From a virus: 64,000 bases of DNA. Where the stretch lies: IMG/VR virus record IMGVR_UViG_3300044998_000260, positions 21,309 through 85,308 of that record; one strand, given 5' to 3'. Of this stretch, positions 21,028 to 37,225 are shown piece after piece (position 1 is the first letter of the stretch; every line of letters begins with the position of its first letter). A program made the translations under genes and the position numbers. The notes under the pieces are model-generated. The model did not search any database, was not told where the DNA came from, and saw only the letters and a list, made by a program, of their open reading frames with translations.

Positions 21028-21035
21028 ATGTTAAG

Positions 21036-21378
21036 TGGACCTGAGGGGGAATCGAACCCCCTGTCCAAAGCATTATACTAAGTGACTCTTCTCCGTGCGC
21101 AGTTCGTTGTCTCATTTTTGATTCAATGTATCACACCGAACAAATCTACATTGTCTCTATCCGATTGTCAATCTCGATCTTATCGGAGTCTGTCAAGATT
21201 TACCCCTTATCGTGAGTTTTTCGTTATCAGGGGATTAACGAAAAACTTCTCGGCTATATTAAGCAGCGAGAGCAAGCGCAGGATTTGCACTTAAAAGTTT
21301 GATTCCATTTAACGAGATCGAATCAGTCTCGGCACGCTTCATTCACACTTCTAACCTCTGTCGAAACCTGGCAGGCCC
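21036..21378 (-). ncRNA. ssrA: tmRNA, tag ANPALALAA*
   Basis: GGGCCTG/CAGGTCC acceptor with G3-U, GGTTTCGAC, T-arm GGGGGTTCGATTCCCCC, tag ORF 21288-21259. Confidence 0.93.
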
Positions 21379-25898: not shown

Positions 25899-25971
25899 TG
25901 CCCATAGCGGGACTTGAACCCGCATCAACCGTTTTAGAGACGGTTGCTCTATGCCTTTGAGCTATATGGAC
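25899..25971 (-). tRNA. amber suppressor tRNA (CTA)
   Basis: ACCGT-CT CTA AA-ACGGT; complete 73-nt cloverleaf. Confidence 0.9.
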
Positions 25972-26284: not shown

Positions 26285-26293
26285 ATAAAAATG

Positions 26294-26488
26294 AATGTTC
26301 CGTAGCCGCAGTTCTGTTCTATCCTATCATTTATCTAAGCACCAACCCGCAGTTCTCTAGGGTCAAGCAATCTGCTGTTTGGCTTGCTGCGTTGCTGTGG
26401 TCTACGCGATGGTATTACCATCTTCCACATCCCCATTGCAGCTGCGAACTTCCTCCAGGTGTCACCACCCAGCGATAGGTCGAACATT
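26294..26488 (-). ncRNA. rnpB: minimal RNase P RNA (195 nt)
   Basis: GAGGAAGTTCGCAG..AGATAAATG..AACAGAACTGCGGCT; P1-P4, P6, P15 pair. Confidence 0.88.
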
Positions 26489-26509
26489 CATTAATATGTT
26501 TTACTATAG

Positions 26510-26588: not shown

Positions 26589-26919
26589 AGAAACGGACTG
26601 AGATTACATCCGTTTATGATTACCCGTTTGTTGGATTATTCCAACCCGTGTCCCCACGGGCCGTTCCCAACTTATCCACACCCTCATGGGCGTCGGCAAT
26701 CAGAGCGACCTTTTTTAAGGTGTGGCATTTCACCTGTCGTCTGGCGCTACTCAACCTTTTCTCTACCACCGAGCTTGCGGCCCGTTCAACTCCGCTAAGA
26801 GTTTATGTGCGAGTCTGGATTGATGAATCTCCGTCTTGGGAACATCGACTCAGCCACATTCGTTACCGTGTGGCATTACGCTCTTTTTCGCGTTCAGACC
26901 GAGGAAGTCTTTCCATTTT
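26589..26919 (-). ncRNA. short GOLLD-like structured RNA
   Basis: no ORF, many hairpins; GTTGAGTAG, GTGGATAAG, AATAATCC, GTAATCTCAG resemble GOLLD 3' domain (recalled). Confidence 0.5.
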
Positions 26920-26994
26920 TGGGTTCAATAGTGGGATTCGCACCCACAACCGATTCTTTAGCATAGAATTGCTCAACTATTGAGCTATATTGAA
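26920..26994 (-). tRNA. atypical tRNA-like gene, anticodon GCT, short variable region, C73, CCA encoded
   Basis: TTCAATA/TATTGAA acceptor; T-loop TGCGAAT. Confidence 0.6.
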
Positions 26995-26996
26995 AC

Positions 26997-27480
26997 CTTG
27001 AGCGAAGTGCTTCCTCAGTAGTTCCCGTATCTTTTGGATACAGAAATGCTACACTCCGCAGTTGTGTTCGGCTTGCGACCTACTTCACCATGTTTTGCGA
27101 CCACGAGCGGCACTTCTAACAGTCGCCCCGCCCAGACCACTCACATTGCAATTCAGCCCTTGACTGCAAAATCTCAAACTGAATTACTATCTGTTACCGA
27201 TACTTCCTCGGCCGTTGGTATGAAAGGAGCCCGGCACCACCCGTCAGACTTCGGTAACCCGCTTTCCTTTCGGGGCGTCGGCTACCGTTCTTTCCCTTTC
27301 ACGACCTTCGGACCTATCACCGCTTTGGGAGCGATGCCACCACAGTCGCTGTGGTGTCGGCCAGACTTGCTTCGGCGAGCGAGACTTTCATCTCACGGGG
27401 ATTACAAGGATACACCCCTTTATATGTCTTACGACATACTATTCTCACGGACCCGAAGCGGCCCGTTACTTCAGTTTTCA
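26997..27480 (-). ncRNA. ROOL-like large structured RNA
   Basis: TGAATTGCAAT, GTAGCATT, CCAAAAG..GGGAAC..ACTTCGC resemble ROOL 3' region (recalled); many hairpins. Confidence 0.5.
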
Positions 27481-28418: not shown

Positions 28419-28724
28419 TGCCTGTGGAGGGAGTCGAACCCACACTTCGGAGATTTTCTTACCACTATAACTTTCGTTACATTTCTACCTGATTATGATA
28501 GAAATTTTTGTGGTCTGGACTATACCTTTACCTTCAACTTTACTTGTTAAGGTACGCGCCGTCTAGTCTCTACACTTTCAATGAGAAAAAAAACAGTCTC
28601 AAAGCTTAGCTCGGGATTGGCAGTTAAGCTTTCCCCGAATTTGACGCGATTCACCAATCATATTTCTATGATAGTGCTCAAATTTGTTTAAGTCTCCTGC
28701 CTCTGCCAATTGGGCTACACAGGC
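28419..28724 (-). tRNA. tRNA-Leu(TAA) split by group I intron
   Basis: exons 28724-28690 and 28457-28419; CTT^AAAA. Confidence 0.9.
28458..28689 (-). mobile_element. group I intron (tRNA-Leu UAA type), 232 nt, no ORF
   Basis: P AATTCGGGGAA, Q AATCCCGAGC, R GTAGAGACTAGACGG, S AAGGTATAGTCC, terminal G. Confidence 0.9.
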
Positions 28725-30697: not shown

Positions 30698-30772
30698 TAG
30701 GAGTGACGGGATTCGAACCCGCATTGCACTCGTTGAAAGCGAGGGTTCCTAGGCCAATTAGAAGACACTCCC
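30698..30772 (-). tRNA. tRNA-Glu(TTC)
   Basis: cloverleaf. Confidence 0.88.
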
Positions 30773-30777
30773 ATAAT

Positions 30778-30857
30778 GTGGTGCTCTACCTTTAAGCTAC
30801 ACAGCATAGCTCAAGTCGCGTCGCTGTGACGGGATTCGAACCCGCACCTACCACCAC
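30778..30857 (-). ncRNA. circularly permuted tRNA-like RNA
   Basis: T-arm and 3' acceptor precede 5' acceptor and D-arm; ends pair GTGGT/ACCAC. Confidence 0.75.
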
Positions 30858-30873
30858 TTTGACCTTTCGGCCA

Positions 30874-36945: not shown

Positions 36946-37020
36946 ATAGTCCGATATTTGTATTGCGTGTCGGAATCAGCACGCTTGCCGTTATGGCTTT
37001 ATGTCAAAAATCTACTTCAG

Positions 37021-37108
37021 TGCGTGTGGAGGGAATTGAACCCCCGACGGGCTTTTACACCAACGGATTTACAGTCCGGTGCCACCAACCAGCATTGGCC
37101 TCACACGC
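37021..37108 (-). tRNA. tRNA-Tyr(GTA)
   Basis: GCGTGTG/CACACGC acceptor, long variable arm. Confidence 0.9.
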
Positions 37109-37184
37109 GACATCAAGTTAAGAATTTGCCAAACCGGCATACTTTCTTGATGTTTCGACTCCAACGAGTCATCATCAGGCGTGT
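37103..37184 (-). ncRNA. type I hammerhead ribozyme; predicted cut between 37109 and 37108
   Basis: ACACGC-CTGATGA-T-GACTC(GTTG)GAGTC-GAAA-CATCAAG..CTTGAT-GTC^GCGTGT. Confidence 0.9.
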
Positions 37185-37196
37185 CCTACTTTTTGT

Positions 37197-37225
37197 ATTA
37201 TACCTAATATCAACTTATTTGTCAA
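37197..37225 (-). promoter_or_regulatory. perfect sigma70 consensus promoter ahead of hammerhead-tRNA-Tyr
   Basis: TTGACA-17-TATAAT. Confidence 0.9.

Follow-up and report, generated by a model that had tools for sequence, protein, structure and literature searches.

The question raised by positions 37021-37225 of the window (the whole 64,000-nucleotide stretch of viral DNA analysed here) is whether the 5' end of a phage tRNA can be made by a self-cleaving ribozyme lying directly in front of it. The formation of tRNA 5' ends is credited almost universally to RNase P, while what hammerhead ribozymes do for bacteria and phages has been an open question since their discovery there in 2011. On the basis of sequence comparison and folding models, the element in front of tRNA-Tyr is probably a functional type I hammerhead, which would cleave itself co-transcriptionally and leave a tRNA-Tyr with a 5'-OH, the acceptor stem then displacing stem I of the ribozyme.

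The tRNA array and the hammerhead in front of tRNA-Tyr

The window belongs to a 105-kb IMG/VR viral contig (completeness about 48%) whose source is hot-spring microbial-mat metagenomes. Since rIIA, rIIB and baseplate wedge proteins are encoded by the contig, the phage was assigned to the large T4-like myoviruses. No close relative of it was found among GenBank phages by blastn, among viral contigs by an exact 33-mer search, or with rIIA as a single-protein probe. At 21-38 kb of the window, the minus strand carries about 45 tRNA genes together with a tmRNA (21033-21378), a GOLLD RNA with a tRNA inside it (26595-27061, 198 bits) and a group I intron (28498-28699), as identified with ARAGORN and Rfam. 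One tRNA of the array has a CUA anticodon and is an amber suppressor (25899-25971), and at 30758-30866 on the same strand there is a match to the Y RNA-like YrlA that stays below threshold (37.4 bits, gathering score 69).

All parts of the element are read on the minus strand. The perfect TTGACA-17-TATAAT that had been claimed was confirmed at 37225-37197 (TTGACA at 37225-37220, a 17-nt spacer, TATAAT at 37202-37197); it is the sole 12/12 promoter-like site within 30-40 kb and would function as a sigma-70-type promoter, with a predicted transcription start at about 37190. Between the -10 box and stem I lies, as read from the sequence, a 12-nt 5' leader (ACAAAAAGUAGG, 37185-37196), in which no conserved tertiary-contact motif was found.

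The complete type I hammerhead of the original prediction was found with every element in place from 37184 to 37109. The 5' strand of stem I, ACACGC (37179-37184), is identical in sequence to tRNA positions 67-72 and is followed by the catalytic core C3-A9, CUGAUGA (37172-37178), which was located by sequence, by descriptor and by a covariance model (model R2, described below), and which agrees with the required C3 U4 G5 A6 N7 G8 A9. After an extra U between A9 and G10.1 (37171), the stem II hairpin GACUC-GUUG-GAGUC (37157-37170; 5 bp, with a G10.1-C11.1 pair) and the GAAA of G12 A13 A14 A15.1 (37153-37156) lead into stem III (37110-37153), in which the A15.1-U16.1 pair and CAUCAAG/CUUGAUG make up 8 bp around a 28-nt loop with an inner UGCC/GGCA hairpin. 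The stems and the GAAA were supported by sequence and descriptor, and stems II and III also by the computed fold. The U of the A15.1-U16.1 pair is U37110, and position 17, which must not be G, is C37109, the predicted cleavage nucleotide, the predicted scissile bond being 37109/37108. The 3' strand of stem I, GCGUGU (37103-37108), is the 5' acceptor strand of tRNA-Tyr (nucleotides 1-6), as had been proposed, and gives a 6-bp stem I; G37108 thus doubles as hammerhead N1.1 and tRNA G1.

The tRNA-Tyr(GUA) itself, the only gene of this kind in the phage fragment, was called at 37021-37108 by Rfam (45.8 bits) and at 37020-37108 by ARAGORN. Since both programs start tRNA-Tyr at 37108, the cut register falls on G1 and the predicted scissile bond is the -1/+1 bond of the tRNA. 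The tRNA is a class II tRNA of bacterial type, with a long variable arm, G1-C72 and A73. Among its oddities are A8 G9, a C27.U43 mismatch and the lack of an encoded CCA, and the A8, the mismatch and the absent CCA are common to its relatives in contigs L010 and L225. In the spacer past tRNA-Tyr, a hairpin GCGUG-N10-CACGC (36965-36984, minus strand) has one arm with the sequence of tRNA nucleotides 1-5 and one with that of the stem I/acceptor 3' strand, which may be due to chance.

Three helices of 6, 5 and 8 bp are present with the core-adjacent pairs N1.1-N2.1 and G10.1-C11.1, and a departure from the hammerhead consensus is the extra U at 37171, which separates A9 from the position 10.1 that it should directly precede. 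An alternative register, with the extra U taken as 10.1, was rejected because G12 would be lost. The minimum free-energy fold of 37190-37100 is exactly the three-way junction (z = -2.6). With the type I descriptor a single site was found in the whole 105-kb contig, and with the loosest descriptor 0.08 sites per window were obtained in 300 dinucleotide-matched simulated windows; since none of the 300 was as good as the observed site, a chance origin of the motif is excluded.

The Rfam hammerhead models gave no match to the element, either at the gathering threshold or at E<=10. The tRNA-fused copies of other phages, the canonical ones included, are also below threshold, indicating that these models do not cover the tRNA-fused group. 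Covariance models were built from foreign sequences. Model R1, from three foreign seeds, ranks the window element first in the 18-kb array (20.7 bits). Model R2, from 13 hammerheads of other phages (mostly tRNA-fused units, with the window excluded), gave one match on both strands of the 64-kb window, at 37101-37185 on the minus strand (35.6 bits, E about 6e-9, such E-values being rough). This match is full length, has the same cut site, and takes the extra U as an insert.

With its extra U after A9 and its 44-nt stem III, the window copy is the most divergent member of the group. AG/AG flanks around stem I are common to the other tRNA-fused members, and no convincing tertiary contact between stem I and loop II, of the kind that hammerheads require for fast cleavage at low Mg, was found for the window copy. 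The extra U, the 44-nt stem III and the lack of an assignable contact together suggest that the window hammerhead may be slow. De la Pena and Flores are said to have reported in 2001 that a U after A9 raises the cleavage rate.

Hammerhead-tRNA units in other viral contigs

Viral contigs were scanned for CUGAUGA, a gap, CGAAA, a second gap and a tRNA T-loop, and the matches were filtered by descriptor, ARAGORN and Rfam. Ten further type I hammerhead-tRNA units were obtained in nine other contigs, and their predicted cuts fall on the tRNA 5' end or precede it by one base. The offset is 0 before tRNA-Tyr in L010, L020, L021 (two tandem units), L024, L050, L053 and L055. In L031 (12250-12323, minus strand) the hammerhead stands before tRNA-His and the predicted cut is one base before the +1 of ARAGORN, so that the G-1 required by this tRNA would be kept, and in L039 it stands before tRNA-Gly and the predicted cut leaves one extra U. 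The rIIA of this phage is absent from all five of the contig records tested, indicating that these are not its close relatives. Tyrosine makes up 9 of the 11 tRNA-abutting units (window included) against 19 of 555 tRNAs in the fetched loci, a statistic that is weakened by the shared ancestry of some units. Upstream of some units, ORFs (L010/L217 and L039, directly) or tRNAs were observed and no promoter; a promoter is not a feature of the tRNA-fused hammerhead family.

The covariation of stem I with the acceptor stems, on which the original prediction could have failed, was found at all five stem I pairs. In the alignment to the covariance model, 98% of cells are paired and 13-14 of the 17 pairs show double changes, values that are flattered by an alignment fitted to the structure and from which the slid controls are far off. 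In stem I, both partners vary at all five pairs and pairing is 100%, against 33-52% in the slid controls. A check independent of this alignment is given by three contigs with an identical tRNA-Tyr body and the acceptor stems GCAGG, GCCAG and GGTAG, in which each stem I fits its own tRNA. Taken together, the further units, the covariation, the kept G-1 of tRNA-His and the model R2 match give strong comparative support to the proposal that a natural hammerhead makes a tRNA 5' end.

Other scans had a different yield. A first generic scan with the D-arm TAGCTCA gave five matches, none of which adjoins a tRNA, and a scan with longer spacing (93-123) gave mostly chance matches. In cultured phages, no similar unit was found and there were T-arm matches only. 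The scan with longer spacing also yielded a weak and odd motif before tRNA-Ile(UAU) (L095:316, L098:3117 and L119:673, minus strand), which was not accepted; the motif, CUGAUGA-G-GUC...GAC-GAAA, is identical in the three contigs, has weak stems I and III and may be a degenerate hammerhead. Hammerheads of the same build were also observed directly before a YrlA-like RNA (69.7 bits; L018, 6030-6224, plus strand) and before tRNA-like RNAs that were not called by ARAGORN (L009, 9902-9966, minus strand; L052, 96-161, minus strand; L063, L115, L124 and L130). Judging from these sequences, further small RNAs of phages may also owe their 5' ends to self-cleavage.

To place the abutment in context, type I hammerheads at large were considered. 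They are very common in viral contigs, where at least 120 such loci (L233-L351) combine A-rich flanks with a stem I of 5-6 bp, and among the matches listed they mostly lie a few tens of nucleotides before start codons, typically 15-30 nt before the ribosome-binding site. Of 125 generic phage sites among the matches listed, 98 are type I by descriptor, and the fact that none of these 98 abuts a tRNA indicates that the abutment is something special that is being maintained. A pattern search of 185,579 prokaryote genomes gave 81 matches, and none abuts a tRNA. In two tRNA arrays on Propionibacteriaceae-type MAG contigs (L204:996-1353 and L211:1478-1835, plus strand), hammerheads have their predicted cuts 9 nt before tRNA-Glu and 37-43 nt before tRNA-Thr, near the tRNAs and not adjoining them.

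Within the tRNA-Tyr subtype of the window, followed through viral and metagenome contigs, a hammerhead is present in L010 and there is none in L223/L224, L225 and L226-L232. Since the nearest tRNA-Tyr relatives mostly do without it, the ribozyme is an optional and dispensable add-on that has been repeatedly kept. The related tRNA-Tyr genes at L223:7250-7330 (minus strand) and L224:1-100 (plus strand) have no hammerhead core, and their leader contains, inside an 80-nt structured spacer, a GCCGCC that complements acceptor nucleotides 1-6 (GGCGGU).

Folding order and predicted cleavage

Transcription would start from the adjacent strong promoter or arrive by read-through out of the upstream tRNAs. 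Stems II and III of the ribozyme would fold first, and the emerging tRNA nucleotides 1-6 would then pair with the leader strand ACACGC, completing stem I. The core would cut after C17, leaving a leader with a 2',3'-cyclic phosphate and a tRNA whose first nucleotide, G1, bears a 5'-OH. After some 80 nt more, the 3' acceptor strand, which has the same sequence as the leader strand, would capture nucleotides 1-7, so that the cloverleaf forms and the leader fragment departs. The 5' end of tRNA-Tyr would in this way be formed without RNase P. Because RNase P cuts the same bond, it could rescue precursors that remain uncut.

The proposed co-transcriptional order, with the acceptor stem displacing stem I, is consistent with nascent-chain folding. 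In these calculations the probability of stem I is 0.98-0.995 when tRNA nucleotides 1-6 have just emerged, 0.26-0.6 across the next 81 nt of the growing transcript, and 0.003 (37 C) or 0.02-0.085 (60 C) after emergence of the 3' acceptor strand. Since stem I forms early and collapses when the 3' acceptor strand appears, cleavage is expected to be co-transcriptional. At equilibrium, the full precursor is more stable in the tRNA fold, by 4.7 kcal/mol at 37 C and by 2.1 kcal/mol at 60 C, and cleavage must consequently win a short kinetic window. Natural hammerheads appear to be selected for co-transcriptional cleavage (PMC1636495).

Alternative readings and relation to known systems

An unlikely alternative, and the one that survives best, is that the hammerhead is active and was selected for transcript management, RNase P normally making the tRNA 5' end. 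The tRNA-Tyr unit would then be split from the upstream RNA, and the upstream piece would receive a structured 3' end with a 2',3'-cyclic phosphate, much as with the generic phage hammerheads that stand before genes. This would fit the abundance in viral contigs of type I hammerheads with a 5-6-bp stem I, which among the matches listed mostly stand before start codons, as well as the position of the L010/L217 and L039 members directly after ORFs. In some tRNA arrays the predicted hammerhead cut lies farther from the tRNA, at 9, about 14 or 37-43 nt upstream, and at such distances RNase P is still needed. The phage also carries, between two tRNAs, a 205-nt RNase P-like RNA (26287-26491, minus strand; below the Rfam threshold), which aligns with the whole of the bacterial RNase P class A model (55.4 bits, gathering score 100, local E 2e-16) and also matches RNaseP_arch (46.8 bits); its sequence resembles a phage RNase P RNA that has been greatly shortened, and its presence points in the same direction. 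However, a generic separator needs no exact cut at +1, no stem I made from the acceptor strand and no shift to G-1 at tRNA-His, and the absence of tRNA abutment among the 98 generic type I sites listed also argues against this reading. In addition, the stable stem III, ending at -2, should hinder leader binding by RNase P.

A further question is why tyrosine is favoured. The widespread PtuAB nucleases of Septu and retron-Eco7 have tRNA-Tyr as their target, and tRNA-Tyr genes carried by phages serve as a counter-defence (PMC11555353, PMC13096335), which suggests a need for a fast, self-sufficient supply of tRNA-Tyr. That the 5'-OH end, or the speed of a host-independent supply, is the real purpose of the ribozyme and explains the tyrosine bias is a tentative idea that we regard as quite unlikely. 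The original suggestion that the 5'-OH may shield the downstream Tyr-Arg-Pro-Lys-Lys transcript is likewise speculative. No member of the PNK-type kinase, Rnl2, RtcB or CCA-adding enzyme families was found in the 105-kb fragment, which holds about 48% of the genome, so that this absence says little.

A conditional switch, in which stem I and the acceptor stem compete and thereby set how much tRNA-Tyr and how much of the downstream Arg-Pro-Lys-Lys transcript is released according to temperature, Mg and transcription speed, is highly improbable. The folds differ by just 2.1 kcal/mol at 60 C, with stem I still at 2-8% in the full precursor, the habitat is a hot-spring mat, and the long, irregular stem III loop is peculiar to the window copy, all of which would suit such a device. 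Yet no ligand-binding or sensor element was recognised in it, the stems of the other members are short and plain, and mature tRNA could be obtained through RNase P under both outcomes.

The least probable reading takes the motif for a chance match or an inactive relic and leaves the processing of tRNA-Tyr entirely to RNase P. It could draw on the missing Rfam match, on the insertion in the core and on strains that offer no variation in which selection could be seen (in four sequencing runs all variants are identical across the ribozyme, with no substitution, and the strains differ only in the loss of one base from the A-run of the leader at 37190), but it is opposed by the intact invariant core positions and three helices, by the lack of a comparable motif in the simulated windows, by the match of an independent model, by the exact G1 register shared with other phages, and by the existence of natural viroid hammerheads that also have an extra nucleotide after A9 (De la Pena and Flores 2001, cited in PMC2632901).

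The preferred reading, a hammerhead that matures tRNA-Tyr, relates the element to several known systems. It shares with the bacterial and phage type I hammerheads (RF00163; PMC3088659) the core, the strand order with stem I open, the 5-6-bp stem I and the phage setting. The known phage type I hammerheads flank protein genes, whereas in the window copy the substrate strand of stem I is the tRNA acceptor strand and the predicted cut is the mature 5' end; the extra U after A9 also sets the window copy apart. The function of phage hammerheads was called unclear by Perreault et al. 2011 (PMC3088659).

The design, promoter-hammerhead-tRNA with stem I taken from the first tRNA nucleotides and an expected 5'-OH product, is identical to that of engineered transzymes. 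The latter are laboratory constructs made to bypass the start-site limits of T7, whereas the window unit is natural, has a bacterial-type promoter and recurs in wild phages. Engineered ribozyme-tRNA fusions reportedly gave usable tRNA in the hands of Fechter et al. in 1998. A ribozyme upstream of a tRNA gene is described as a standard engineering trick that yields usable tRNA (PMC12228740).

The theta ribozymes (Kienbeck et al. 2024, PMC10879173) are likewise small self-cleaving ribozymes on phage tRNAs that define a tRNA end. They are of the minimal HDV-like class, act at the 3' trailer, occur in gut phages and are linked to suppressor tRNAs, whereas the window element lies at the 5' end, and the theta-ribozyme paper assigns tRNA 5' ends to RNase P (PMC10879173). 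A 2026 paper places hammerheads beside phage tRNAs and cites for this the theta paper, which concerns HDV-like ribozymes. RNase P cuts the same -1/+1 bond of pre-tRNA and is also an RNA catalyst, but it works in trans and by hydrolysis, so that its product has a 5'-phosphate, whereas a hammerhead turns over once, in cis, and the transesterification that it catalyses produces a 5'-OH and a 2',3'-cyclic phosphate.

The original prediction also held that no natural case had been described. In agreement with this, no description of a natural hammerhead maturing a tRNA 5' end was found in the literature searched, subscription journals being outside its coverage. Judged by its sequence, the element is a known ribozyme class in a new context with a new predicted role, and it is one of a small group that had escaped notice and to which the Rfam hammerhead models are blind. 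Because the job proposed for it is precise and is backed by covariation across unrelated phages and by the G-1 of tRNA-His, the function of the hammerhead is directly testable. As a maker of 5' ends, it would be the counterpart of the theta ribozymes, which process the 3' ends of phage tRNAs, and a laboratory design for tRNA production would turn out to be used by nature as well. If the supply of tRNA-Tyr is what it serves, a hammerhead-matured tRNA-Tyr with a consensus promoter would form a self-contained module for its rapid replacement, and the unusual 5' end might help the tRNA to escape a host nuclease or 5'-phosphate-dependent decay.
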